Source of the DNA: Vezdaea acicularis
Taxonomy: Eukaryota
Length of the DNA: 25,434 nucleotides
Assembly (NCBI GenBank): GCA_026025075.1
Contig: JAPEUI010000075.1
Coordinates: 62,001 to 87,434 of the forward strand
Reading direction: 5' to 3'
The notes under the pieces are model-generated. The model saw nothing but the letters and a program-made list of their open reading frames with translations, made no database searches and had not been told where the DNA came from. Numbering within the stretch: position 1 is the stretch's first letter; the number at the start of each line of letters is the position of its first letter. Of this stretch, positions 954 through 25,434 are shown piece after piece. Both the position numbers and the translations under genes were made by a program.

Positions 954-3900
954 CTAGACCCCAGGAACATTGAAGTCCGGGAACTGCGGCCAATTGCCCA
1001 ACTCTGCCGGATCTCCTCCAATACGAACCCATGTAGACAAAGAGGGAGTCGGGCCATCAAGGATGAACAGCTGGTGCCACCCAGGGGGGGAGGTGTGCGC
1101 ATTTGGCGGTGCCGTGATAGTACACGTATTACCATTGCAAGAGAAAGCCGGAAATATAGTCCTTTGACCCATGCTATTGCCATGGGTGCTCGCCACCGCA
1201 CCCATCAAAGAGACCCTCAAATTCGCTGTGGAACCTTGCGTGACGACAATTTGATAGGACTGGCCATAGGCCCAATCCTTGTTCTGAATGGTATATGCTG
1301 GTCTTGGTAAGCCGGACAATAAATATGGTGGCCTGAATACTTCAACACGATATTCTTGTGGGAATCGGGTATCTTCGGGATCGGAGCCTGATACTAGGAC
1401 CCGCCCATCTTGGAGAAGTATCGCTTCGGAGTGGTACAATCGAGCGACCGTCGTGTTTGCCATAACACTCATACGTGAGCCCACTGGTTGGCTAGGGTCA
1501 TACAAGACTGCGTTGAGGTTGGGTTGTGTAGCAAGACCGAAGCCAGCACGGCCCTGCTGTCCGCCGTTGAGGATGAGATATGTTCCGTCAGGGAGAGCGG
1601 CGATACACGAGATAACGCGCTTTGAAGGCTATGAGGAAAAGAGGAATCAGCTTGTGTCAGCGAAATAGACTATTCACAATGATACATTGACTCTGATCTG
1701 ACTTACCATACGCTCAATTGTCCACTTCGGATTGCCCACCTCGGGTTGAATTGATACGCAGTTGTCGAGAGCAATCTCTGGCCCCGGAATCGACCCACCG
1801 CAGATCATCACTGTCAGTGGATCGGAATAGGGTGCATGCTGAGGCATCAGCACTGTCGTGCCTTCAAATGGATATGTGCGTCCGCCCAGAAAATCATTGA
1901 CAGCACCAGGGATATTCGGCAAGGTTTTTGCCGTTGCGAAGGTGGATTCATCCAGAACTCTGGCCTCGTTATAGTATGCGATGAACACACCACCCGAGGG
2001 AAGTACTGCCAGGAAGGGGTAAAGGTTGTAGGGATCGGTGCGGTCGAGAAAATCGCAGTATACAACGGAACCGCCCACTGGCTTTGGAAGGACTTCGAGC
2101 GATGGCACGGGTGCTCCGTTTGAGCCCTCTTCTCCCCCAACGACAAGAATAGATCCGTTAGTCAAGGTCATGGCACTCGGATACCACCTTCCAGCTTGTA
2201 ATTTGACCTCATCATAGTTTTCCTGCCAGTCATTCACTCCAGGGACTCCAGGCGATCCGTCGGGCCAATACAAGCGCACTCCGTAGGTTGCGCCGTTAGC
2301 CCACCCACCGATATTGATCTGCCTACCAACCTTGTCAGGTAGGGTCAAACCTGCGGAGCAAAATATATCAGTCTTGACATGCATTGGTCTCCAAGCTGCG
2401 GTAAAGTTGTTGATTTCGGAGAGGTCTAGCTCATAAGCACCTGTTGTGTTGGGCGCGCCAGTGCCGTACTTCTCCAAGAAGGTGACCTTGCCATTGACGC
2501 CAGCGTTCGTGATGAGTGGTATGACAACACCGCCAATCAAGAATACATATTCGCCTGCCGCGTTGCCGGTGGGAAACTTCCAAGTATACAGGGGTGTGCC
2601 AGTCCATTGATAATAGGAGATCCTATCGCCTCCACCACAGACAACTGTGGGGTCGCCGGAGCAGACCGAGTTGCAGTCAGACTCTGGTTGAATAGTTGCA
2701 CCTGCTGCTGCAATATTGGCAACATCTCCGCAATCTATTTGGACATCAGTCAGGAAGAGGAGATATTGGAGTCTCCAAGGGATTGCGCACAGCATTCGTT
2801 ACTATATTCCATGCCACCAGCATTATATCCGTATTGAGAACATAAGCTAAGACAATTTGTTGCAGTATTATTGTTTGGGAAGATAATCTGGTATGGGAAT
2901 GTCCTCATCTCGGCATTGTCCCTATCAAAGATGAGCATTTGAGAACATGATAGGATACGAGAACAAAGTGAGCTTGACTTACAGAAGGCACCCTTTATAG
3001 GTCCACGAGCCAGGCAGCCCTGAAGTTTGAGCAGCAGGCGCTTGATACGTTTGCACTGTCCCTTTTGAGTATAGGCTGACCCTGTTTGGCCCGCCGCATT
3101 CCTCCCCCGAGTTGCCGCTACAGGCCATGTTGCAATCCGTGTCTGCCGGCGCGAGAGTCCCTCCATTCTTGACGTATTTGTCGCAGAAGCATTGAGTGCT
3201 GTACTCCATTCCCGCGACCGTATAGCCAGCTCCTATACAGGCTTGAATACATGACTCAACAGTAAGCGCCGAATTGTCCGGCTGCTGATTGCTGAGAATG
3301 CGTCCTTGCGCATTGTCGATATAGCATCCGGCATAACTCCAGCCCGAAGGGAGTCCGGTAGGAGTGTTTGATGGTTTTGCTGAGGACTTAGTGGTCATAG
3401 AAGGACTAGAGGAGGAGCTAGCACTAGCGCTAGGGTTGGCGCCACCAAAGCTGTAAACGTCTAGGCGGTTGGATCCACCACAGTACTCTGATGAGTTTCC
3501 ATTGCATGGCATACTGCATCCTGCCAGTCCATCAGATGCGGGGGCACCACCATTAGAGAGCACGTTGCCGCAATCTACGACCAAAGAATGAATAAGTCAA
3601 TGATTTGGAAATTCTAAGAAGGGTACAGAGATGTAGAAGTGCCGAATTGAAATAACGTACAACACTCCCCGGAGTATTCAACGCCAGCGAGAACATATCC
3701 TGAAGCGTGGCAAGCCGACGTGCAGATTGCAACGGTCAAGGCGCCCTGACCACCCGCTGTATTCGCGGTGTTCGTAAGGGTTCGGCCTCCTGTCGAGTCA
3801 CTGTACCAGGTTATAATTAGCATACGCGATGACCTAGCTTCGAGCTCAAACCAGAGGAAAAGTCAGAGTCTATAGGCTGGTCGTGATGATTGCGAACTCG

Positions 3901-4839
3901 TCAATGACTTTGTGTGAAGCTACGAAAGGAGAATAGACTTAAGCTCACCGAGGGCCTTGAATATCCCAAGGATGTAAGTTCTTTCGAAGCCGCCAAACTT
4001 GAGATACCAGCCAAAGAAATTGTACGAAACCCAATCTCTGGGATATATCGGATTGTGAATAGAAGGAACCACTTACGTGTAGCAGCCAAGGAAGCTCCAA
4101 GAATTTGGCCCAGGATTCGTAGATGGAGGCGTTTGGCCACTGTAGAACAGATTCAACCTATTGGACCCCCCGCAGGGTTCATTGCCGTTTCCAGAGCAAG
4201 CCATGTTGCAGTCTCCTGCAGCAGCAGTATTTCCCGTGCTTGCGATGACATCGCTACAATCTGTGGAAGGTAATTCTAGTATTAGTATGAAAAAACCCAA
4301 TCATAGACTTGATTTAGATCAAATATAGACATCTATGGATTTGAGTGGATGTAGTACGTAATGAAATTGAGGAGGACCAGCATATGTCATAAGGAGCAGA
4401 GGCCAACCTACAGCATTCAGTCGAAAACTCGGTCCCCGCGTAAATGTAATTCTTCGAGCTGCAAAAGGTAATACAAGCCTCGTCCGTCATTGCATTGTTG
4501 CTACCGTACGTCGCACTTGAGAGAGTGCGAGCATTTATACTGTCACTATGACCGAAGAAAGCGCAAGGTCAGTCTGCATACCGGGAGCGGGCGAATACAG
4601 CAGCATGTACTTTACTTACGTGTAACAGCCTTTGGACGTCCAGCCTCCAGGAAGGTTCGCAGGTACGGCGAGATCGCGTTTGTGGAGGAGTTCGTGGGGG
4701 ACTGAGTGCGCCGCTGATAAGGCGAGCTGTCCCAAAGTCTGGTCTTAGTAGAGTTCCAAGTAGAAAGAGACATCATCAGACGCACAGAGGAGAGTAAGAG
4801 TAAGGATGCGAAAATCGACGGACGGATCGTCGACATCAT
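954..4839 (-). CDS. Secreted WSC-domain copper radical oxidase (CAZy AA5_1, glyoxal oxidase-like); 4 WSC domains + catalytic domain; 9 exons, ~1018 aa
   Basis: Hand-spliced exons: 4839-4786, 4738-4620, 4545-4412, 4260-4077, 3800-3661, 3574-2983, 2921-2791, 2734-1707, 1628-954 (3057 nt, in frame, all GT..AG). The N-terminus [27 protein letters not shown] is signal-peptide-like and is followed by a KR (Kex2-like) site. Four WSC repeats are present (W..xGC..D...R.L...C...C...Y..AG.EY..EC.C...C...CxG...CGG..R). Radical-copper motifs are intact: DIFCSAG (Cys of the Tyr-Cys cofactor), GRWYPS (Tyr), ARLYHSEA (Tyr+His), [10 protein letters not shown] (His). The C-terminal Ig-like segment reads [16 protein letters not shown]. 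Confidence 0.95.
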
Positions 4840-6316
4840 CGTCGACGATTAGAGAAAGGGCAAACGAATGACAAGTACCAAGTTCAGGTGGAGAAAGCAA
4901 TATACTCCGGCAGACGAATGATGGTCAAGATCGGCCGCGCCATGGAGCCCTTCTTAAGTGTCCATCAGGGAGCCACCGCCGTCTGGGCCACATCGATAGC
5001 CAAAGTCAATAAGGGACAGTACGCGTACTCCGAGGTCGAATATCGCGTTCTCCAGCCCAAGGAAGGTCGGAGGAAAGCTAAGGCGAGGTTGCTCGCTACA
5101 AGTGACCACGGTACTGCTCTCCATGCTGCTCTTCATGCTGCCCTCCGCTTCTTCTGTTTCTCTCTTGGGACTGGGTCTGTCCAAAGCGGTCGAGAAGCCG
5201 TCAGCGGCTGATCCGGGTGGCTTGAAGCTTTCCAAGCTTCGTCACGGCAGAGCTCACGCGACGAGAAACGATGGAATAAGCGTGACCTCTTTTTCGATTA
5301 GGAACCAGAGAATTGCATATGCTAGTGGTCAGGAGGAGCTAGCCAGAGGTGCCAAAGCAAACCGAGCAGACCGAGCGGACCGAGAAGAGCGAGCAGGTCA
5401 AGCAAGCCAAGAAAGCTTTACGCGACGGATATGGTATTCGGTTGCGTGCCCCTCACGGTCCATCTCGACGCCGCAGCCTCAATCGAAGCGAACACGGGCG
5501 ATGGCTCTTAGGGCCCATGCCCCGCCCGTCCCGCATGGGCCAAGCGAGCGACTAAGGTCTTGTGTTGGAAATCCAAGGGAGCTGAACTCTTCAGGGGCTA
5601 GGTTTACCACCTCGTTCTGCGGTACCCCACGGGATCACGAGCCGGTGGCGTCCGTTTGCTTCAGGGTCCTACCAGTCCGTCCGTGGTTGGGGTACGGCGC
5701 GCTAGTGAGCCACTCATGTCGCAGCTCTCAAGAGCATTGCGATTTGGCGAAAAAGGAGGATCTGGACCTCTCGCCAACTACGCCTGAGCACTATCGACGA
5801 CTGAAGTCATCGTCACAACTCCCTCAGCCTGGGCTCCGGACGCAATACATATCGATCTCGGCCCCATTCGTTACCTATTTTGCGAACTCCTTTCAGCATC
5901 AAAATGGCTATTCTCGCGACTGCATTGACGCTCGTTATCTTGCATATAGATATGGATTACAGGCTCAATCGGGCCCTGTCCATTACCTGCATCTACGCCC
6001 TGCTCGACGATGCATTATTGAAACAGGCGACATGGCCAGCAGACATGGCCTGCGGTCGGTGCATGCCTCGTGCTGCGCAATGCAGTCCCTGCTGCTACCT
6101 GAGGAGCTCGGCGATGGACGGAACTCTGTCTGACCCTTGGCTCGGCATCAGAGCTATCAGATGATCTCCACTATTTGACGCTCGCGGCTTGGGGGATTGA
6201 AGAAGTCATCCGTGGCCATCCTGAACTTGTCCTTCAGCTTCATGACAGAGGAACCTGGCAAGTGTACGGACCACCGAGCAATCAGCCCGTCCGTATCAAT
6301 CACGAGGTCCCTCAAA
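4840..6316. promoter_or_regulatory. Divergent (head-to-head) intergenic/promoter region between the AA5_1 oxidase and GH16 genes
   Basis: About 1.5 kb between the two start codons, which face opposite ways. Inferred from gene orientation only; no specific transcription-factor site identified. Confidence 0.45.
5362..5415 (+). repeat. Degenerate 9-bp tandem repeat (6 units)
   Basis: CCGAGCAGA CCGAGCGGA CCGAGAAGA GCGAGCAGG TCAAGCAAG CCAAGAAAG. Confidence 0.5.
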
Positions 6317-7910
6317 ATGTCTGGCCAAAACTCTGTCCGTTCAATCCACTCAGCCCAGACGCCCTCCACGCCTCCCACAAACCCATTCGCAACTCCGATT
6401 CACGGTACTCGTTCTCCCGCAGAAGAGGAGCGGAAGCGATACTCGTACTTCCCAACTGCAATCCCCGGTAGGCATTCAGCGCGGAGATCGAAGAGAACCC
6501 ATAATGACGTGACTTCTAGGGCCTTCAATCCCTCGCAAACGCAAGTTCAAGAGCGCCCGACTCAGGGGAGAGTATGATAGATCATTTCCTTTAAACTCGT
6601 TGCGCTTACGCACGAACAGGTACGAAAAATCATGGACGGAGGAAGTCGACCCTCGTAGGAAATGGGAAAAGATAATCTTCTGGTCGTGCATTGCCCTTGG
6701 GTTTGTCATTGGTGCTGGCATATGCTACATGTCACTCTTGACTGTGACCAATCATGAGGTGAGCATCATAACCATCGCCTTGAGCACTGACTGCTCATCT
6801 GTCAATAGTATTGCCTTCTTCTAGAAGATGATTTCAAGACCATCGACCCAAGCATATGGAGCTACGAGATTCAACGTGGGGGTTTCGGCACTGGTTCCTT
6901 CGACTGGACAACTAAGGATCCCAAAAACTCTTATACCGATGCAGCTGGTCTCCATATTGTTCCGACACTCACCACGGAGTCAACAGATATCACCCCCGAA
7001 CTGCTACTTGATGGCCACGTCCTTAACCTTACTACCGATGGGACCTGCACGTCCTCCGATGTTACGATGTGCTCTATCCGTAGCAACAAGACTGCGGGAA
7101 CCATCATCAATCCTGTCCGTAGCGCGCGCCTCACGACTAAAGGCAAGAAGTCTATCACATACGGGAAGGTTGAGGTCATTGCCAAGATGCCGCAGGGTTC
7201 GTGGCTCTGGCCAGCTATCTGGATGATGCCCGAGAAAAACACCTACGGAGACTGGCCAGCCAGCGGCGAGATTGATATCGCGGAGAGTAGAGGCAACTTT
7301 GGCGATGACTACCCTGATGGTAGGGATAGTTTGACCAGTGCGCTACATTGGGGACCTGTTCCAGAGTCGGATGCATTCTTCAAAACTAGTGGGAAGCACA
7401 ACGTACGAAGAACAGACTACTCTGCGATATACCATACCTATGGGCTGGAGTGGAGTGAAAATTATCTCTTCACCTATATCGACAGTAGACTTTTGGTAAA
7501 ATTCTCTCTCGCTCCTTAGAATGATTTCCTGACCTTTTCAACAGCAAGTTTTTTTCATTAAATTCAATTCTAAATACAAGACCATGTGGGATCGCGGTGG
7601 CTTTGGCAAATCCATTCTCAACCACTCTGCCCTCTTTGACCCTTGGTCACAAACCGGCAGACCTAACACTCCCTTCGACGAACCTTTCTACCTCATTCTC
7701 AATGTAGCCGTCGGCTCCACCAACGGCTTCTTCAAGGATGGTGTTGCCAACAAGCCGTGGGGAGATGCGAGCATCAATGCTCCCTTGGAATTTTGGAGTG
7801 CCAAGGATCAATGGTATCCGACTTGGGGCAAGGGCGACGCAAGAGGCCTTACCGTTAAGAGCGTCAAGATGTGGACAGAAGGGGCCTGTGGTAGCAAACC
7901 GAAGCTATAG
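6317..7910 (+). CDS. Membrane-anchored glycoside hydrolase family 16 protein (laminarinase / beta-1,3-glucan-binding-protein-like); 5 exons, ~464 aa
   Basis: Exons: 6317-6467, 6520-6571, 6620-6758, 6809-7495, 7545-7910 (1395 nt, in frame). A Ser/Pro/Thr-rich N-terminal tail and basic KRKFKSARLRGEYEKSW segment precede one TM helix (IIFWSCIALGFVIGAGICYMSLL). The GH16 domain follows with PVRSARLTT, YGKVEVIAKMPQGSWLWPAIWMMP, the catalytic WPASGEIDIAE (ExDxxE), and PFDEPFYLILNVAVG. The start codon is the least certain part. Confidence 0.92.
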
Positions 7911-9587
7911 GGTTACATGGTATCGCTGGAGAATACTACGAATGGTCAAAATGAAGCAGGGAATGCTTCGATCGCCTGCATCTTTGCCTCTAATGCGCTG
8001 TGATAATAAAGTTTTGGGCTTTAAGGACTGCTTTCAACTTCCCCTTCATGCTTTGCCGCATTTAGTTTAGAATTGATTGGGTATTTACTGGGTGTCTTTT
8101 ATAGAATGGATTGATAGAATATTGGTTCCTGGAACACATCTCTTCGCCCCAGCTTGTGTTAACAAAATTTTCTGATGTCTTGAACGGGAAGAAAACATGC
8201 CTTGTGGGAAGTGTGAGATCAAGGGCGTGCCGAAGGATCTCATTCCTTGACGACTTGAGGTTCTTGGCGGTCTCCCCATAAGGCATATTCCGGAACAGCC
8301 CCCAATGGCGTCAGGAATACAGCTGATAGGGGGAACGACAGCCCGCTTGACCCGTCACATTTCCTTTGTCCCAACTCTTACTCCAGTGGAGGCTACAATC
8401 GGAGGAACGCGGCACGCGGCACGCGCACGCCATTTCTCGTGTCGTGCACGTTCGTGGCAAAGCACGCAGTTCGTTGTATGTTGGACCGGCGATAAAGAGT
8501 AGTTGGGCGATGCCAGCGATAATCTTCAAGTAGCAAGATCCTTGTCGTGGTGTATCGACCAGGATCCCAAGGTGACGGCGCTTGTCGGTAGTTTCCACCC
8601 TCCTCGCTTCGGTTGCTGCAAGCGAGGGTTAGGGTTCTCGCGTATTCCCACGGTTCAATAGCGCCCCTTACCGTTCATGCCAGCTTCCAATAGCCTCGTG
8701 CTGGCTCAGGCGCGCTATACCCTATTACGATCTCACCACAGCACGGCGTGCAGCTCAATAAAAGCAGCTCGGACACCCTAGGCAGTATCGTCTACTGGAG
8801 CGCCTATTCCGTTCGGCCCGACGTCCTAACATGATTGGACATTGCCAGCTCGTGGCTCCTGTCAGGGCAAGGAAGGTATGCAGACGTCCCAAGGATAATG
8901 TGACTTCGAGCAAAACGGTCTTTGGTATTCCCAGAATTACGTACGGCTCCACCAGCAAGGCGTGAAGCTTCCAAGAAATAGATGGCTTTTCAAACTACCT
9001 GACTCTCACCACACTTGCGGTTCATTTCTTCGGGCCTATTTACTATCAATACCATGTTCTAATGCGTGGCGTATTTCCGCAGCTGTTGCTCGCTGCAAGA
9101 TTGCAAACTTTCCATATGTATGATCGGCCAGCTTTGTATCAAAGCAAGGTCAAGCAATATCCGTGGCCAACTTGGGGCAGGTGAAATGTTGACAGAGAGC
9201 AGCGCCGCCTGCATCAATCTTGAAACACTGCAGGCCTTTGCAATACGCTCGCATCTCAGGCCACTATGCCGCAGAGCTTCGAGACCAAGTCCGCCATGAA
9301 TGCATGCATAACAAATGATAGCGCGCGTGCATTGTCTGTCATGAGGGAGGCCATCAACGTGTTATGATCAGCTTGGTAGCTGCTCAATACGATAGCCTCG
9401 GCTGAATAGCGTCGAAATCGGGCGGTAGGACAGTGCTTGATCTGGGCCTGTTCGAGCAGTTCCGTTATTGAGCTGCATGGCCAATATGGTGCCTAACAGC
9501 AGATGGGTGGCTATCCTGGAGCCTTCATCTTGAAGAAGATAGAAAACCTCGCCGAAGGATATTCTCTCTCATCACTACTCTTCTTCA

Positions 9588-12500
9588 ATGGCTTCTTCAG
9601 GAATTGAACTTGACTCAGCACCCACCGCTGCAAAAGATGGCAATGGCTCTAGAGTACGCTTCTCACGCCCCGCGTCAACAATTCATGATAGCACGAACTC
9701 TAGCATCATCTCGGCTGGCGCAAGTGGCCAAGATCGCCACGATGTTGTACGTCTTCTAGAATGCTCGACCCATCATATATATTACCACATTCTTACTAAA
9801 GGGATTTCCAGATGGTCAAATACCTCTATCGGAGATGCCTCCAGTCAAAGTGGTTGGAATTGAGCGAAGAAGATTATGGCAATTCCAACGGCGAGACATC
9901 GAGGCTTGGAGTGATGCTCAAGCGTCCAGATGGCATCTACACCGCGGAGCCAATGTTTATGAATCACGATGTTGTCAGCGCTGTGGAGAGACTTGGCGTC
10001 TCCGTCGCTTTCACAATGTCGTCCGAGATCATGCATGCTCTGCTCCAACAAATCACCCCCTTTCAGACCGAGCTTTCCATGGGACCTGGTGGCTTTATTC
10101 TTCATATTGTCAACTCGGTGAAAGACGTTGGCTTGGAAAAGTCTGCGGTTACGAAAGACGCGTACGTCTGCTTGTGCCGTGCTGAAAAGTTCGTCCTTGT
10201 TTGGGGCAATTCTGTTCAGGGTATCCTTACCCATGGAACGGATGTGGAGACAAAGCTCCTCGGTTTGGTTCGCATAATTGAAGCACCTTACCCCTAAAGG
10301 TCTAATGGCTGATTGGCTCATAGGTCTGGGGAGCACATATCGCCAATCCAAATCCTGGTATGACGCTTTCATATCCGCCTCTGAACTCTCCGCAAGATAA
10401 TAGGCGGTCATACTTTCCGACTGGCGACTCGGGCTGGACCACACCTGGAGATCCTTCTATGAACGAGAAGATTGGTGTGGTGCAGACCGCTATCGAACGC
10501 GAGGAGCAGGGCGATAAAATCTTCGATCCGGAGAAAGAAGGCCATGAGCCACCCAAGAGACCTTTCCTCATCACCCACGCCTTAATCATCGGCCTTGCGA
10601 TGGTCTTGGTCGTGGTCGTAGAGATGGCTTGTCTTGCAAAAGTGAGAAATACAGTCACCTTCGTGAATAAAAGACTTCCTAACACTTCTTCTTAGCTCTT
10701 GACCGAGGTCCGCTTGGATGGAAAAGTAATGCGCTTTGTTCTTGTGGGTACCTCGCAAATCCTCCCTTATGAGCAGCAAATGGTTCAGAAGCAACAGGAG
10801 TGCTGACTGAAATGAAACCCAGCTCGCGACTATTCCAATATTCGGCACATTCTCGCTGGTAAGCTGCATCGAACAGGCTCTTCTTCCCTCGAACATATTG
10901 AGCTCCCTAGCTGTATTATAGGCTAGAGCTAACATGCGATTATTGAATTTAGTTCTTTATGATTGTCTTGTCTGGCTCGATCTTCCAGCTCTTTGGACCC
11001 TTGTCAGGAGTGGAGGGAAATAGCTTGTACTATTCAGGTGTGTACTCACTGAGGTCAGGATGTGTCCTGCAGTATCGTTTCTCATCAAGAAAATAGGCAA
11101 AGCGCCAAAAGTAGGGAGATATCCTGACCTTGAGCTTCCCCACGTAACTATCCAGATGCCGGTTTACAAAGAAGGGTTGAAAGGGTATGATGAATCGGTC
11201 TTATAGACAAGCCTTCTCGAGCTGAATGACACAGGGTGATCATTCCTACGGTGACTACTCTACTTGCAGCTGTGAAGCATTACGAGGCCCAAGGTGGTAC
11301 AGCTTCGATTTATGTAAATGATGACGGTATGCAGCTAGTAAAGCCAGATCTTGCTGAGTATGATCTGCCTCACCTTATGTCTTGGCGCTCCCTAACTATC
11401 TCCCTTTAGAGCGCGTAAAGCTTTCTACGATCTCAACGGTATAGGGTGGTGCGCTAGACCCCCTCACTGCACCGAAGAAGGTGAAAATTATTTCCTTCGG
11501 AAGGGTCAGTTCAAGAAGGCATCGAACATGAATTATTGTCTCGACTTCTCGATTCGTGTCGAAGATGAAACGTTGAGATTGATTGAAGAGACTTGCCGCG
11601 AACGTGGCTGTACGCAAGACGACCTTACAATAGAAGACGAGGATGAGCTATATGAGAAAGCTCGCGACAACATGGTAGAAAAAGATAGTGGCAGGACATG
11701 GGCTGCGGGCAATGTCCGGTTAGGAGAGGTTATCTTGATCATCGACTCTGATACCCGTGTAGTAAGTCGAGAGCTTTAATGAGAGTAACCTAATATGCTG
11801 ACAAATTTCCTCTAGCCGGAAGATTGTCTTCTTTTTGGAGCTCTTGAGATGCATGAAAGCCCAGAAGTCGCCCTCCTTCAACACGCTTCTGGAATTCTCC
11901 AGGTCGTAAACAACGTTTTCGAAAATGGTATCACATATTTTACAAACCTTATCTATACCTCAATTCAATTTGCCGTAGGAAATGGCGACTGCGCTCCTTT
12001 TGTGGGGCACAATACGTTTATCCGGTGGAAAGCCATCCAGAGCATTTCTTGGGAAGAAGATAACATGACCAAGTTCTGGTCGGACAGCCACGTATCTGAA
12101 GATTTTGACGTAAGCTTACGCTTGCAAATGAATGGCTTCGTTGTACGTCTTGCGACCTACCACGATGGCGGCTTCAAAGAGGGCGTATCTCTCACAGTCT
12201 ATGACGAACTGGCGCGTTGGGAAAAATACGCTTATGGTTGCAACGAGCTGGTCTTCCATCCTTTGATCAAATGGCCTACAAGAGGACCATTCACGCGGCT
12301 CTTCCTCCGCTTTCTTCGAAGCAACATCAAAGTGACATCTAAAGTCACCATCTTCGCCTATATTGGTACATATTACGCCATTGCATCTGCCATCCCGCTC
12401 ACACTCGCGAACTACTTGATCGTCGGGTGCTTTGCAGATGACGTGGACCAGTACTACATCACCTCTTGGAAGATCTTTGTAGGTATGGCTGTTGTTTTCA

Positions 12501-12966
12501 ATATTCTTTCGCCTCTCGCCTATGCCATGTTGCGACATCGTCTTGGGCAGAAAACATTCTTTTGGTCACTCGTCGAGACAATCAAGTGGACACCCATGTT
12601 CCTACTATTCTTTGGCGGTATTTCCTATCATTTACTCAAGTCTATCCTTTGCCACTTCTTCAGCATCAAGATGGAATGGACAACCACTGCGAAAGAATTG
12701 GAAGAGTCCGGCTTTCGAGTTGGCTTGGATCGGATCGTGCGAGACTTCAAATATATGTATCTTTTCATTCTCCCGATCGCAGGTGGGATGATCTACATGG
12801 CACTATATGCGCCAAGGGGTTGGATGATCAAGGATTTTGCAGCCATCGTGCCAATTGCCAACCAGGTTGGCTGTCATGCCCTTCTGCCAGTAAGTTTTCC
12901 CGACTCCCTTCGATGAAATTAAAGTTTACTAATATCAATGTCCAGTTTATGTTGGGGCTATTCTAG
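9588..12966 (+). CDS. Multi-pass processive glycosyltransferase family 2 (cellulose-synthase-like fold, Glyco_trans_2_3-type); 11 exons, ~919 aa
   Basis: Exons: 9588-9746, 9812-10267, 10324-10641, 10696-10743, 10823-10858, 10953-11037, 11097-11184, 11235-11357, 11410-11761, 11816-12889, 12946-12966 (2760 nt, in frame). Two N-terminal TM segments are followed by LPHVTIQMPVYKE, VNDDG (first D), FKKASNMN (equivalent to CesA KAGNLN), IIDSDTRVP (DxD), APFVGHN, HVSEDFD (TED-type catalytic base) and DELARWEKYAYG (QxxRW position). Several C-terminal hydrophobic helices follow. Confidence 0.93.
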
Positions 12967-18980: not shown

Positions 18981-19540
18981 GCTGAGAACGCTGCAATAGA
19001 CGGTGTGGATGCAATTTCCAGATACTCACCTGGCATCTTTTCTCTCGCACGAAATCTAGAACGCAAGCAAAGTTATTTTGCTACAGCGGCAAGCAAGTTT
19101 CCCAACAGATTTTTAGCAGGCTACTCTTGACCTAGGCAGCCATTTTGATCTGTCATGTGAAAGTAGCATAATCTCAAGCCAATCTAGTGAGCTTTGCTCA
19201 GAAGAGCAGGCAACACGCTGTTTTCGGTGCAATATGGTCGCAACCGTAGCTTACAAACTTTGCCATGTCGCAGGGAATAGGTGTCTTCCTACAGTAGTAT
19301 ATTGGGAAGCTATGTTCCATGCGCCTCTCCGCAATCTTGTCTACAGGAAGTAAACGCAGCCCAAAACTATTGCTGCATTTTCTCGGCCGTAAGTTAAATT
19401 AGCGAAGCTTTCTCGTTCGATAAAGCTGTTACGTGCAACTACGCCCACCTCTCTCTGCACACCGAGCACTAGCTCTGTATTGTTTGACAGTCAACAAGAA
19501 CGATTCTTGCGTTCCTGCGGATAAGCAGATAGAAGGAATC

Positions 19541-22175
19541 ATGGATGCTCTTACCAAGGCGGTTCATACTACACCAATCATTGACCATCATGCGCATAAT
19601 CTTCTGCTACCGAGCCAAGAAGCTAACCACTCGTTCCTGTCTATCACTAGCGAGGCCACAGGAACGGCCCTTGAACATGCCACCTCCACGCTTGCGCATA
19701 CTCGTGCCATCAAACAGCTCTCAGAGATACTCGGCTGCGAGTCCGAGCTGGAAACGGTGCAGAGTCTGGTCCAAAAGAAGAGGAAGGCTCCGAACTACAC
19801 GTGGGCGCGAAAATGCTTTGAAGGTATCGAATGCGCTCTCATTGACGATGGTCTGGACGGAGAAGAGGTATACCCTTATCATTGGCATGACAGCCTCACC
19901 AAGTCAAAATGTAAGAGGATCATCAGGATCGAGACACTGGCAGAAGATATATTGAGGAGACATATTGCAATCAACCGAAGCCCGGAGAAGGAAGCTGATA
20001 TTAGCATCTCTGAGTTTCAACGTCTTGTCGAGGATGAATTCTCTGCAGCGATTCAAAGGGCATCTGAAGACCCAGAAGTTGCTGGTTTCAAATCAGTGAT
20101 ATGCTATCGCACTGGCCTCGCAATTCCGCACCTTAATGATATCAACGCGAGCGAAGCATTGCAATCGCTCCGCGAAGCTGGGTTAGAGAGCTTCACTCGA
20201 CTTAAGAACGAATCTTTAAACCCTTACTTTGTTCATTTGACTGCTAAGTCTATTGAACGCTTCGCCTCCAAATCACAGTATTCGAAGCCCCTGCAATTCC
20301 ATACTGGTCTTGGAGATAACGACTTGAGCCTGAAGCTTGCGTCTCCCTCACACCTTCAAATTTTTGCTGAGACCTATCCCACTGTTCCTATCGTTCTTCT
20401 TCATGCTGGATACCCTTTTACAAAAGAAGCTGGATATCTTGCCAATGTGTATGCTAACGTATATCTGGATGTTGGTGAAATCTTCCCTGCCATCAGCCAT
20501 GACGGACAGGACAAAGTAATACGAGAGGCGTTAGAGCTCTGCCCCACAACAAAATTAATGTGGAGCTCTGACGGCCACCGCTTTCCAGAGACGTTCCTCC
20601 TCGCTGTAATCCAGATTCGAGAAGTAATGGTCAAAGTAAGTGTCAGTTTTGCTTCATTGCTGAATGCCTCTAAACGTTGCTGCCGTCTAGGTTTTGCAAG
20701 ATTACGTATACTCTCAAAAGCTAGAGACTTCGCAAGCAATCACAATTGTTGAGGACATTTTCTTCAACACAGCAAATCGTCTCTATAGGCTTGACCTCGC
20801 CTTTACACCTGTAGCTCTAGGGACGGGGCCAAGAGCAAAAACCCTTGAATCAACTTCTGAGCGGGCAGGAGCGGAAAACCATGCGATATTCATGAGCTTC
20901 CTAGAGAAGAATCAGTTCACCAAATACGTCCGCCTTCAATGGCTGGATTACACAGCATCTTTGCGCGTACGAATCCTACCTGTCAGGCACGCTATCAACA
21001 TGTTCCGAGATCACAAATCTATCGGGATAACGAAGGCTGTGTTTGGGCTTTTGCAGAATGACGCGATATGTCGAGGTTTCAGCCCAATTGGGGAGTATCA
21101 ACTTCATCCATGCTTTGATAGCCTTAGAAAAGGTGCATACGCAACAATGCAGTGTGAATTCCGCGAGGATAATGGAAAGGAGGTGGCAATTTGCCCCAGA
21201 ACAGTCTTAAGGAAGGTTGTTGAAAAAGCAGATGCTCAAGGGCGAACGTTCCTTGTGGGTTTTGAGCTTGAAGTTATATTTATGAAGTGGACCGTCATTG
21301 AGGGCGAGTTCGTGTATGGTCATGCACCAGTTGACCAGGGGCACGCCTGGTCGTCTGCGCGTGCCTTACAGGATCAAAGTATCTTGGACACTTTAGAAGA
21401 GGTATTGGAAGCCTTGGAGAAGTCCGATATCGATGTACTGCAGTTTCACCCCGAGAGCGCTCCGGGCCAGTACGAATTTGTTGTTGGCCCACTGCCGCCG
21501 CTTCAAGCTGTCGATACGCTGTTGGTAGCGAGGGATATAATCTGCACAGTCGCCATGAAAAACTCTCTCAAAGCTACATTCACCCCAAAGCCCAACCCGC
21601 AGCATGCTGGAACTGGGGCTCATATCCACCTCTCAATGTCGCCGGCTCAAAAGTACGAATCCTTTTACGCAGGAGTTTTGAAGCACTTAGAGGCGATCAC
21701 AGCGTTTACATACTCCAACATAACGAGTTTTGAGAGATTAGGAGATAGTGTCTGGTCAGGTGGTACTTGGATTGCGTGGGGTACTCAGAATAGGGAAACG
21801 CCGTTAAGGAAAGTCGAAGGTTCGCATTGGGAAGTCAAATGCGTGGACGGTTTGGCCAACAACTATCTTGCACTCGCCGCAATTATTGGGGCAGGGTTTC
21901 AAGGAATCCTGGACGAAGAAGATCTGCCCATGCAAGATTGCCTGACCGACCCTGCTCTACTATCAAGCGAGGAACGAAAGGCGTTAGGCATCCATCGCAA
22001 ATTCCCCACAAGCATCAAAGAGGCCTTAAAATATTTACGTGAAGATAGTCAGCTCCGAGAGATCATTGGCGACGCAGTTGCTGATACGTATTTGGTCGTT
22101 AAAGAGGCTGAAAATGAGATGCTCGAGGATATGACTCCAGAGAAGAGAAAGAGCTGGTTAATTGAAAGATATTGA
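19541..22175 (+). CDS. fluG: FluG-like bifunctional protein: N-terminal amidohydrolase (nodulin-6-like) + C-terminal glutamine synthetase I-like gamma-glutamyl ligase; 2 exons, ~859 aa
   Basis: Exons: 19541-20635 and 20691-22175 (intron GTAAGT..CTAG). Amidohydrolase motifs: PIIDHHAH, LIDDGL, GFKSVICYRTGL, PLQFHTGLGD, VLLHAGYPF, NVYLDVG, LMWSSDGH. GS motifs: VGFELE, FHPESAPGQYE, AGTGAHIHLS, AWGTQNRETPLR, HWEVKCVDGLAN. The size and two-domain architecture match Aspergillus FluG. Confidence 0.9.
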
Positions 22176-23071: not shown

Positions 23072-23600
23072 TAAAGAAATAGATCGCTAGTGTGGGCCTA
23101 AGTTGCTTACGGGAGCACTTCCCGTGTACTATATAATGACGTCTTAGAAGGGGAGCTATACAAGACTCGTACTTAGGTTATTTCTGACTGTGGGCGTTCA
23201 AAGTTGTAGCCATCTGAAAAGGGGATTCCATATTACAATGTTGTTTATGGTGAAGCGAGCATGCCGTCATTTTCCAGCACTCACATCGTTCCAAATCCTC
23301 CCCCTCGTTAACAGACCCCTTCCGCAGACGTTGGACAAATATCTCTTATTCTGAACGTGGAAACAAGATATCAATTGACAGTATAGAGCAGATGCTTAGA
23401 AGTGGAAATCGCGATAGGTTTGCTCTTCAACATGGCTCGCCACCAAGACCGGCAGAATTTTCAGTAAGGAACCATGGCGTCATGACTACGACAGGTGCGC
23501 ATGTACTACCGCTTTATGACCTCGCTGCCTGTAGCTTGTTCTAGCCAGATTATGCTGGCTTTCTCTTACAATTCTGCAAATTTCTTGAAGCGTCAATTCT

Positions 23601-24348
23601 ATGGCCTTGAGGTTACTTGTGCCATCTCGAGCCTGCCGAATATCTAGTGTCCTCCCGAAGTATCGTTATTATAGCAAACAAACAAGTATGAGCAACGACG
23701 AATGGAAGGAACGAGCTCCATATCGGATTCACGAAGATAATCAGAAATTCAACGCTCGATATGAGGGGGGCTGTCATTGTGGACAGGTTCAATACCAATT
23801 GAGTAGAGAGAGACCTTTAGACGCTAAATACTGCCACTGTACCACTTGTCAGGTCATACATGGTACGTTTCTGTATGATTCACTAATAAGGTGGCTAGCT
23901 AACCAAATTCTAGGCGCGCCTTTCCAATGGGCAGCCATCTTTCACAAGGAGGACATTAATTTTACTAGAGGTCATCATGGCCTGGTCTGGTATGATACTG
24001 GTGAAAAGACTACGAGACACAAGTTGCCATGCAAAGTCAGCTGTGGGTACTGCCGAACACCTATCATGGATGAAGGAAGGAACATGATATTACTATTCCC
24101 TACATTGATCCATTTCAAGGGTGATGTGGACAAGCAGAATTTCGCACCAACGTAAGCCCGTCACTGAGTATCAACGATTCGTGAACTAATTCTAGTATCT
24201 CTGTAGTTGTCATATGTTTTATGGACAGCGAGTGGTAGACATTCCAGATGGAAAGCCAAAGTGGACCGGACTGAACAATGACAGCGAACTTATCGAGGAT
24301 AATGAACCAGACTTAAAGAAGCGCAAGCATGAACAGGAAACCGTATGA
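23601..24348 (+). CDS. GFA / CENP-V family (Mss4-like) zinc-binding protein, glutathione-dependent formaldehyde-activating enzyme-like; 3 exons, ~213 aa
   Basis: Exons: 23601-23862, 23914-24151, 24207-24348 (642 nt, in frame). Family motifs: YEGGCHCGQVQY, YCHCTTCQVIHGAPF, CGYCRTP and PTCHMFY. An alternative start is Met at 23688 (MSNDEW). Confidence 0.88.
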
Positions 24349-25310
24349 GAGTAGCTTCTCACTTCCGCAATTGACAATACGAAATTCTTCTGGACCTGGT
24401 ATCTTGAGATACAAGACCAATGTGCGGCTTCTGCTCTATGTGCTATAAATATGGCTTCTTTATTTTGGCCACTGACATAGAATCAATGAGCATTTATAAG
24501 GTCTGGAAACCTAAAGCTTGGGTCAGATGCCTATAGTTGCGCTTAAATTTGTGAGATCCTCGAAGTATGGCTTAAAAGCTTCGATGCTTGAAGATGTTGC
24601 GGGACCATGGTTAAGCTCACAATCCGCATCTCACCTAGCCATTGCCACTGTTTCTTTGCGTTTTCCGGTTGTTCTCATCTTCTCTTATTCTCAGCTATAG
24701 AATCCAAACCTAAAAGCCTATTTGAGTATCTTTCGACTGCTTTGGCCAACGTGAGAAGGAGCGTTATTATAAAGAAGTATATAGAAGACCTTTTGCCTAC
24801 AACCAGAGCTGTGACAAAGTATCGGTTGTCAGTATTCCTTTGGTGACATTGAGACGTACTTGAAGTTAGATGTATGGAGGTTGTCGCGAAAGTCCTGACG
24901 TGGGTGGTGAACGTGATTGTAGGCGGTGAGGCGGAGATGAGGACCAGGGTGTTGCTGCATGTATTTGCAGGTGTGAACTGTCTAATTGATGGGAATGATG
25001 AATGGAAGTGAGTAAGTGAACGAGATGGGCTCGGGTCGTCGCTTTCGCCATTACTGCGCCGCGTACTTTTACCTACTCGCTGTTTAGGGTCAGGGTCAGG
25101 GCGAGACGACAAGACTCCCTTATAAGACGCAAAATTCGACGAATATTTACGTAAGCAATAAGCGAAGGGAGGAGCTACTTGCTGGATAGAACTGGCAATA
25201 AGATCCAAAGTTGAGCCTAAACGCTTGAAAAAGTTCATTTGCGCGTAGTCCAGGCATTGGTGACTGCATCAGTGCCCACGTTGGCGTTAAATTCGCGGGC
25301 CGAAGCATCT

Positions 25311-25434
25311 TTAGGGTTAGGGTTAGGGTTAGGGTTAGGGTTAGGGTTAGGGTTAGGGTTAGGGTTAGGGTTAGGGTTAGGGTTAGGGTTAGGGTTAGGG
25401 TTAGGGTTAGGGTTAGGGTTAGGGTTAGGGTTAG
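25311..25434 (+). repeat. Telomeric repeat array (TTAGGG)n at the chromosome end
   Basis: Twenty perfect TTAGGG units plus a partial TTAG run to the end of the sequence. The G-rich strand runs 5'->3' toward the end, as expected for a right-hand telomere. Confidence 0.98.

Follow-up and report, generated by a model that had tools for sequence, protein, structure and literature searches.

Among the closest described counterparts of the locus analysed here, one is bacterial. In Streptomyces, a filamentous and tip-growing host, cslA, glxA and cslZ encode side by side a BcsA-type GT2, a glyoxal-oxidase-like copper-radical oxidase and a glycoside hydrolase, the last of these (CslZ) being a GH6 endoglucanase. 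The same composition is found in a stretch of 25,434 nucleotides from the fungus Vezdaea acicularis (assembly GCA_026025075.1, contig JAPEUI010000075.1, positions 62,001 to 87,434 of the forward strand), referred to throughout as the window, which carries a membrane-embedded GT2 polysaccharide synthase, a type II membrane GH16 and a secreted AA5_1 oxidase with four WSC domains. We propose, at a probability of roughly 0.6, that these three genes represent an ancient polysaccharide module of the Pezizomycotina, serving the cell wall or the extracellular matrix and maintained by selection.

GlxA has been described as belonging to a two-component cellulose synthase complex (cited in PMC13094651). 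For the Bgs3-Ghs2 pair of Schizosaccharomyces pombe, it has been proposed that a transmembrane GH16 works on the growing chain at the glucan synthase's extrusion pore (bioRxiv 10.64898/2026.02.18.706439), and there, as in the window, a membrane synthase is paired with a transmembrane GH16. The oxidase has characterised relatives in the aldehyde oxidases FgrAldOx of Fusarium graminearum (9N3U) and CgrAldOx (PMC13094651), which share the architecture of WSC domains followed by an AA5_1 module, with three WSC domains there and four here. Two further fungal systems are alike in their synthase: AfTFT1/CelA, a multi-pass non-chitin-synthase GT2 that is conserved across filamentous Ascomycota and makes a wall beta-glucan (PMC4344333; bioRxiv 10.64898/2026.09.17.752320), and ZtGT2/FgGT2/CPS1, a non-chitin GT2 presumed to produce an outer-wall polysaccharide that hyphal growth requires (PMC5653360).

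Gene content of the locus and its linkage across Pezizomycotina

The window holds three intact, intron-bearing genes between positions 954 and 12966, limits that are the stop codons of the oxidase and GT2 genes, respectively. The oxidase lies on the minus strand, head-to-head with the GH16 on the plus strand, and the GH16 and GT2 stand in tandem. The gene models were assembled manually, with open frames, splice consensus and homologues as guides, and their introns are predicted, being of the short GT-AG type of fungi. The features are as follows.

954-4839, minus strand: secreted oxidase carrying four WSC domains and an AA5_1 module of the glyoxal/aldehyde-oxidase type; 9 exons, 1014 aa, no internal stop, all introns GT-AG
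4839-4786, 4726-4620, 4545-4412, 4260-4077, 3800-3661, 3574-2983, 2921-2791, 2734-1707 and 1628-954, minus strand: exons of the oxidase gene model
4840-6316, no strand: divergent intergenic region between oxidase and GH16, 1.48 kb between the two ATGs; presumed shared promoter region
6317-7910, plus strand: GH16, type II single-pass membrane protein, laminarinase-like, with EIDIAE; 5 exons, 464 aa
6317-6467, 6520-6571, 6620-6758, 6809-7495 and 7545-7910, plus strand: exons of the GH16 gene model
7911-9587, no strand: intergenic region between GH16 and GT2, 1.68 kb
9588-12966, plus strand: GT2, DUF7928 and membrane-embedded polysaccharide synthase; 11 exons, 919 aa
9588-9746, 9812-10267, 10324-10641, 10696-10743, 10823-10858, 10953-11037, 11097-11184, 11235-11357, 11410-11761, 11816-12889 and 12946-12966, plus strand: exons of the GT2 gene model
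9812-10267, plus strand: exon coding DUF7928, the cytosolic N-terminal domain of the GT2 (P0372); 152 aa

No conserved coding sequence was found between the three genes when the window was compared with 80 related loci by tblastx, which returned only matches below 30 bits in the bins covering most of both intergenic regions (a single match in the 5-6 kb bin, to L060, and matches to L006 and L020 in the 8-9 kb bin). The original prediction, made from the sequence of the window, had described three adjacent, intact genes with nothing recognisable between them, and the gene models and tblastx agree with this. It had also named a secreted AA5_1 oxidase with four WSC domains and a head-to-head, single-transmembrane GH16 with an intact ExDxxE motif, and both descriptions stand on the evidence detailed for each protein below.

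Linkage of the three genes was followed in loci recovered by scanning metagenome contigs of the Joint Genome Institute (JGI) with a GT2 alignment. The scan yielded 80 loci, each flanked by as much as 10 kb per side, representing 65 lineages at 95% nucleotide identity, and these were assigned to clades on a GT2 tree that included named proteins. The window falls in clade A (30 rows, support 96) together with Glutinoglossum (Geoglossomycetes), Wilcoxina (Pezizomycetes), Dothideomycetes, Eurotiomycetes and Leotiomycetes, with an Elsinoe group as sister to the clade. Several B groups comprise Aspergillus, Penicillium, Fusarium, Talaromyces, Malbranchea and an Alternaria-like locus. Clade C consists of metagenome loci (e.g., L025:5885-11095 and L064:4358-11092, within L021-L080) that a long branch (0.41) sets apart from every named Pezizomycotina sequence sampled. 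Linkage upstream of the GT2 was counted in lineages whose contigs extend at least 6 kb in that direction, searched with the three spliced models.

Clade A: 6 lineages; GH16 linked in 6/6, oxidase linked in 6/6
Clade B: 4 lineages; GH16 linked in 2/4, oxidase linked in 0/4
Clade C: 12 lineages; GH16 linked in 10/12, oxidase linked in 0/12

A seventh clade-A lineage, with a flank of 4.6 kb, also has the GH16 linked. The arrangement of the genes has changed within clade A. In all seven metagenome lineages that have upstream flank, GH16 and GT2 are divergent, lying on opposite strands, and the oxidase lies downstream of the GH16; the GH16 of the window is inverted relative to these loci and hence shares the strand of its GT2, and the gene order in L009 is GH16-oxidase-GT2. 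At the end of the L009 sequence, about 3.6 kb downstream of the GT2, there is an extra WSC-like fragment (L009:14761-15016). The clade-A lineages have just three blocks in common, and a fourth conserved cluster gene was found neither among these nor in clades B and C, where two blocks are shared. Positions 13-25 kb of the window have nothing in common with the GT2 surroundings of clade-A loci, as tblastx against the 80 loci gave only weak matches in L009, L045, L064 and L067. The conserved linkage spans the distance between L001, a pezizomycete-like lineage, and Leotiomyceta, with flanks that are not conserved, and because it has outlasted inversions and a change of order (L009 and the window) while all other neighbours were lost, selection on the linkage itself is suggested.

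Named genomes give a corresponding picture. These were surveyed by locus tags among the best 120 of 2240, 430 and 1015 matches, for which cluster representatives may be from different strains. Consecutive or near-consecutive tags occur in at least five Pezizomycotina lineages, and among the matches listed the triad is linked in named Geoglossomycetes, Dothideomycetes, Leotiomycetes and Eurotiomycetes. GT2 and GH16 have consecutive tags in at least eight species (Cryoendolithus, Cladophialophora immunda, Exophiala xenobiotica, Cudoniella, Malbranchea, Aspergillus nanangensis, Penicillium hispanicum and Elsinoe fawcettii; examples are B0A48_06768/69, CLAIMM_04849/50 and LTR67_010686/87). GT2 and oxidase are two tags apart in at least four (Glutinoglossum, Recurvomyces, Paraphaeosphaeria and Oculimacula), and GH16 and oxidase, close together in at least three species, have neighbouring tags in Clarireedia and Ciborinia and a spacing of two tags in a Teratosphaeriaceae species. 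In Lojkania the whole triad is on a single 97-kb contig, and the GT2 and oxidase of the pezizomycete Wilcoxina are on a single 153-kb contig. The original prediction had reckoned with orthologues that might be unlinked in most other fungi; what was found is a triad linked in 6/6 clade-A lineages and in named genomes. Its further claim, that the triad is a module, fared well in part, through the linkage in clade A with non-conserved flanks and rearranged order, and gave way as to the oxidase, which is not a universal member (0/16 lineages of clades B and C).

Several public gene models also speak for linkage, as they appear to be chimeras in which neighbouring genes of the cluster have been fused. 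P0103 of Aspergillus hiratsukae is a chimera of a GH16 N-terminus and a GT2, P0171 (Cudoniella) joins a GH16 to five WSC domains, and P0189 (Clohesyomyces) joins a GH16 to five WSC domains and an AA5_1 module. The Glutinoglossum GT2 model (P0001) seems to keep intron sequence.

The strongest argument that the GT2 and GH16 proteins work together comes from the retention of paired paralogues. In a FastTree phylogeny of the GH16, the 19 proteins encoded next (or probably next) to clade-A GT2s form one clade with support of 99, and the 10 encoded next to clade-C GT2s form another with support of 100. An IQ-TREE phylogeny, restricted to the 30 rows for which the partner clade is directly known, recovers the same division with SH-aLRT values of 88 for the A-partner side and 100 for the C-partner side; partner labels need two changes on this tree, which is the minimum, compared with a mean of 13.3 after shuffling, and none of 200 shuffles was as low. 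Elsinoe is sister to clade A in both the GT2 and GH16 trees. As the GH16 tree mirrors the GT2 tree, each GT2 paralogue has kept its own GH16 paralogue since ancient duplications. That the adjacency is due to chance or is residual ancestral synteny, with no selection, is hardly credible in view of the 0/200 label shuffles and of a linkage that extends from L001 to Leotiomyceta between flanks that are not conserved.

The synthase and its linked GH16

The GT2 contains DUF7928 (PF25550, 2.9e-27) followed by Glyco_trans_2_3 (PF13632, 6.3e-46), and it is a multi-pass protein with hydrophobic segments both before and after the catalytic domain. A draft model of 913 aa is 73-77% identical to P0004, P0001 and P0003. 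No PDB chain was found at E <= 1, either by phmmer with the C-terminal exon or by hmmsearch with a profile of 24 sequences. The homologue P0004, which is 73% identical to the window GT2, was modelled with AlphaFold from a 73-sequence alignment (pLDDT 82.7, pTM 0.70) and searched by fold. Foldseek placed BcsA first (1.4e-12), followed by CesA8, hyaluronan synthase (HAS), cyclic glucan synthase (Cgs), CslF6 and Chs1. With VIA-align, BcsA gave Z 20-22.4 and an rmsd (root-mean-square deviation) near 4 A, with 387-473 residues aligned over model residues 283-913, and Z was 18.3 for CesA8 and 16.7 for HAS and Fks1. The match takes in both the GT-A domain and the transmembrane channel of processive membrane synthases. 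Judged by the fold of this model, the GT2 is a BcsA/CesA-like synthase, and the CesA-like character claimed in the original prediction is upheld at the level of fold and absent at the level of sequence.

The conserved motifs of the GT2 are DDG, KKASNMN, DSD, SED and ELARW, of which DDG, DSD, SED and RW show little or no variation among 73 homologues. Among the 80 GT2 loci, SEDFD is present in 79, ExxRW in all 80 and ELARW in 73. From their order, we tentatively take DDG, DSD, SED and ELARW to correspond to the BcsA motifs D, DxD, TED and QxxRW.

Preceding the synthase is the DUF7928 domain, for which no paper mentioning either DUF7928 or PF25550 was found in the literature. A model of the domain (P0372; pLDDT 92.2) has the class II aldolase/adducin-head fold, with 2irp_B as the best match (Z 11.7, rmsd 2.7 A, 137/152 residues aligned). 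In a wide fold search of the PDB, the top 15 structures all belonged to the class II aldolase/adducin superfamily (Z 8.2-11.7), followed by matches with Z of 7.6, 7.2 and 4.7. In the family alignment W14 is the sole invariant residue and there is no conserved His triad. For this predicted fold, non-catalytic sugar-phosphate binding or oligomerisation appears more likely than aldolase activity.

Two known fungal GT2 enzymes were considered as possible identities of the synthase and rejected. AfTFT1/CelA would suit a GH16 of mixed-linkage type. Its switch motif (AfTFT1 548-558) occurs in 0/372 proteins at up to 4 substitutions and is also missing from the window GT2 at up to 5, and no offset gives at least three of the four residues G392, I519, C524 and I551 in five Aspergillus and Penicillium homologues (switch motif and mutated residues from bioRxiv 10.64898/2026.09.17.752320). 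As for ZtGT2/FgGT2/CPS1, the Fusarium graminearum member of the present family is FGSG_11099, whereas FgGT2 is FGSG_00702 (PMC5653360).

The GH16 model is letter-for-letter identical to the database protein P0133 (from a metagenome-assembled genome of Vezdaea acicularis, leotiomyceta incertae sedis). A basic N-terminal tail is followed by one hydrophobic segment (aa 84-111) and a GH16 domain (PF00722, 1.1e-11 and 2.6e-11) that contains EIDIAE, an intact ExDxxE motif. E264, D266 and E269 of this motif (P0149 numbering) are invariant across 58 homologues, and the motif was found in 26 of the 28 locus-derived GH16 pieces, the two that lack it being partial. The best PDB relatives are 5nbo (7.4e-22), which we take to be a mixed-linkage glucanase, 7kr6 (4.6e-21), the laminarinase 3iln (4e-18) and the beta-1,3(4)-glucanase 7wwc (1.5e-17), and by this homology the GH16 is of the laminarinase/mixed-linkage-glucanase type. 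A Kre6/Skn1-type enzyme was rejected despite the type II topology in common: Pfam includes a SKN1/KRE6 model, and both the exon pieces and P0133 in its entirety matched PF00722 and no other model (E <= 0.001-0.01). The cytosolic stretch before the membrane anchor (window 6520-6758; consensus RKFKSARLxGEYEKPW) is near-invariant in the 58 homologues, which hints at a cytosolic or juxtamembrane contact, possibly with the synthase.

A generic laminarinase type would also be expected if the three genes merely shared a chromatin domain or promoter as co-regulated but biochemically independent wall functions, the GH16 acting on beta-1,3-glucan made by Fks1 and the GT2 making an unrelated product. Divergent promoters are common among co-regulated fungal genes. 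We consider this explanation improbable: the GH16 and GT2 have co-diversified through at least two ancient splits, and the orientation of the genes varies between divergent and tandem, so that one fixed bidirectional promoter is not what has been conserved.

In the proposed module, the core would be a two-gene unit of a plasma-membrane GT2 synthase, with its cytosolic GT-A domain, its own transmembrane channel and the N-terminal cytosolic DUF7928, and a type II membrane GH16 with its catalytic domain facing outside. The GT2 would polymerise a nucleotide-sugar in the cytosol and extrude the chain, and the GH16, in the same membrane, would cut or transglycosylate the nascent chain, either branching it or grafting it onto wall glucan, comparable to what is proposed for Bgs3-Ghs2. 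In clade A, the secreted WSC4-AA5_1 oxidase would have been recruited as a third member, held in the wall by its WSC domains, where it may act on the GT2 product or a derived aldehyde with release of H2O2, as a functional analogue of GlxA beside CslA. Because the GH16 is laminarinase/mixed-linkage-glucanase-like, our leading candidate for the polymer is a beta-glucan with 1,3 linkages, at about even odds. The shared pathway, the reaction of the GH16 and the substrate of the oxidase are what we infer from these lines of evidence.

The oxidase as a member of the proposed module

Among the exon translations of the oxidase, Pfam identified WSC on five exon pieces together with Glyoxal_oxid_N (PF07250, 1.9e-27) and GO-like_E_set (PF09118, 1.6e-24). 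The spliced translation has, by eye, a hydrophobic signal-like N-terminus, then four WSC repeats of eight Cys each and then the AA5_1 module, and its identity to the annotated proteins P0253, P0256 and P0257 is 67-69% across almost the whole length. Two catalytic-module exons match FgrAldOx (PDB 9N3U) with E of 2e-99 and 7e-97, and in the HMMER alignments to 9N3U the FCSA, RWYP, LYHSEA and THG motifs are kept with the expected spacings. In FgrAldOx, C450, W509-Y510, Y738-H739 and H826 account for the Cys-Tyr cofactor, second-shell Trp, axial Tyr and two His ligands (PMC13094651). By these alignments, the oxidase carries all residues for copper-radical catalysis. The nearest non-fungal solved relative of its C-terminal half is Streptomyces GlxA (4UNM, 5LQI; E ~1e-20), and galactose oxidase matches at ~1e-10.

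The introns of the WSC region (2735-4619) cut repeats 1, 2 and 4 at two recurring positions, one after the first conserved Cys (GCY|T-D type) and one inside the EC|YC motif, and repeat 3 is without an intron; this pattern is consistent with exon-level duplication of the repeats. One intron of this region is unusually long (276 nt, 4076-3801).

A wall role for the oxidase is consistent with the phenotype of a Metarhizium WSC4-Glox (MaGlox) mutant, in which wall content was changed and hyphae were distorted (PMC11315307), and with the binding of chitin or beta-1,3-glucan by WSC domains in reports cited in PMC11611005.

Several results weigh against the three genes as a single module. The oxidase is unlinked in all 16 assessable lineages of clades B and C, in which the GH16 is linked in 12, and since these GT2-GH16 pairs are without a linked oxidase the pair is the conserved core; the pair works without a linked oxidase. 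The core itself is not always evident, as the remaining 4/16 lineages have no GH16 in the 8-9 kb upstream. Within the named-genome survey, the best listed oxidase matches are on other contigs in Chlorociboria, Mollisia, Acephala and Cudoniella (g2796), the listed GT2 and GH16 are on different contigs in Thozetella, Polyplosphaeria and Periconia, and, among the matches listed, one Teratosphaeriaceae GT2 has a tag distant from those of the GH16 and oxidase. The characterised relatives of the oxidase, FgrAldOx and CgrAldOx, favour D-glyceraldehyde and methylglyoxal and are poor on carbohydrates, and one-WSC constructs of the two showed no binding to any of six polysaccharides (PMC13094651). Finally, an invariant E replaces the Q of the canonical QxxRW in the GT2 family, and the GT2 has no sequence-detectable solved relative; the donor and product of the synthase cannot be read from homology. 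With regard to the oxidases on other contigs, the three that are clearly unlinked group on the oxidase tree with basidiomycete and sordariomycete sequences in a supported clade apart from the others, which is probably paralogous judging from the tree, and the linked oxidases follow a roughly species-like order without being monophyletic under midpoint rooting.

Much of this would fit an explanation in which only the GT2 and GH16 are a functional unit and the oxidase adjoins them in one clade by regulation or historical accident, with its own job in the supply of H2O2 or the removal of reactive aldehydes at the wall. The contrast between an oxidase linked in 0/16 lineages of clades B and C and a GH16 linked in 12/16 is as this explanation would have it, as are characterised relatives that oxidise small aldehydes without polysaccharide binding, MaGlox phenotypes that were ascribed by the authors to carbonyl detoxification (PMC11315307), and the occurrence of WSC-AA5_1 proteins far outside the cluster (among the matches listed), e.g., in basidiomycetes. 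It is harder to reconcile with an oxidase that is linked in 6/6 clade-A lineages and in named genomes of at least four classes, and with a linkage that outlasts inversions and a change of order when every other neighbour has been lost, which is difficult to explain without selection. The precedent of Streptomyces, where GlxA is required beside CslA, also speaks against it. On balance we consider an oxidase with a separate job to be unlikely, and retain the three-gene module as the preferred reading for clade A.

Beyond the cluster, the window contains two adjacent or overlapping frames on the plus strand (19424-22172) with Amidohydro_2 (2.4e-10) and Gln-synt_C (1.1e-63), the domain pair of FluG-type developmental regulators; these frames are not kept beside the cluster in any related locus of clade A. 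A further plus-strand frame (23589-24152) has a GFA (glutathione-dependent formaldehyde-activating) domain (3.9e-13), and the far end of the window (25150-25434) is a simple repeat with the minus-strand translation (LT)n.

Comparison with known systems

No description of a fungal GT2-GH16(-AA5_1) cluster or of a fungal GlxA-CslA counterpart was found among the openly accessible papers listed, as judged mainly from titles and abstract openings. For the genes FGSG_11096 to FGSG_11101, titles and abstract openings likewise held nothing bearing on a Fusarium AA5_1 beside the GT2. The cluster is real, ancient and apparently undescribed.

Each of the fungal systems that resemble it in part also differs from it. 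The Bgs3-Ghs2 partnership is physical and genetic, with no gene cluster mentioned in the abstract, whereas the GT2-GH16 partnership is known from linkage and co-diversification alone. AfTFT1 is 29.5% identical to HvCSLF6 over 237 residues according to the AfTFT1 literature, in contrast to the window GT2 family, which has no sequence match to 8DQK. The ZtGT2 gene spans ~2.2 kb, and PMC5653360 mentions neither a GH16 nor an oxidase neighbour for it.

If the module is as proposed, a synthase family conserved across filamentous ascomycetes, among them plant pathogens, black yeasts and lichen fungi, would point to a wall or matrix polymer without a known synthase and a possible antifungal or diagnostic target. 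It would provide a physiological context for the WSC-AA5_1 'glyoxal oxidases', whose mutants have hyphal, wall and virulence defects, and the co-diversification of GT2 and GH16 adds genomic evidence for the emerging view that dedicated synthase-remodeler pairs take part in assembling the fungal wall. A bolder version, which we put forward tentatively and regard as rather doubtful, is that the Pezizomycotina hold an unrecognised ancient synthase system in which the DUF7928-GT2 is obligately tied to its co-evolving GH16 and, in clade A, also needs the WSC-tethered oxidase for deposition of the polymer. Such a system would be an independently evolved eukaryotic counterpart of Streptomyces CslA-GlxA and would give the fungal 'glyoxal oxidases' a role in wall morphogenesis.

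The differences from cslA-glxA-cslZ extend to every component. The fungal hydrolase is a membrane-anchored GH16 as opposed to the family of CslZ, and the fungal oxidase has a signal-like N-terminus and four WSC domains where Streptomyces GlxA has a membrane anchor. GlxA and fungal AA5_1 share only ~16% identity (PMC13094651). The fungal GT2 carries DUF7928 and has no sequence-detectable relation to BcsA. A scan of 185,579 prokaryote genomes with two peptide patterns found no close homologue of the GT2, the two matches being 25-32% identical, and a recent transfer from bacteria was rejected on this result. As prokaryote homologues are only distant, the likeness to Streptomyces is better taken as analogy, through convergence, than as common descent. 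The original prediction had likewise seen a convergent analogue of the actinomycete system rather than its kin, a view that agrees with the different hydrolase family, the distance of GlxA and the two remote prokaryote GT2 matches. By analogy, the fungal cluster may work like Streptomyces cslA-glxA-cslZ but is not a member of that system, and the parallel with CslA-GlxA would then be a convergent solution to tip growth in filamentous microbes.

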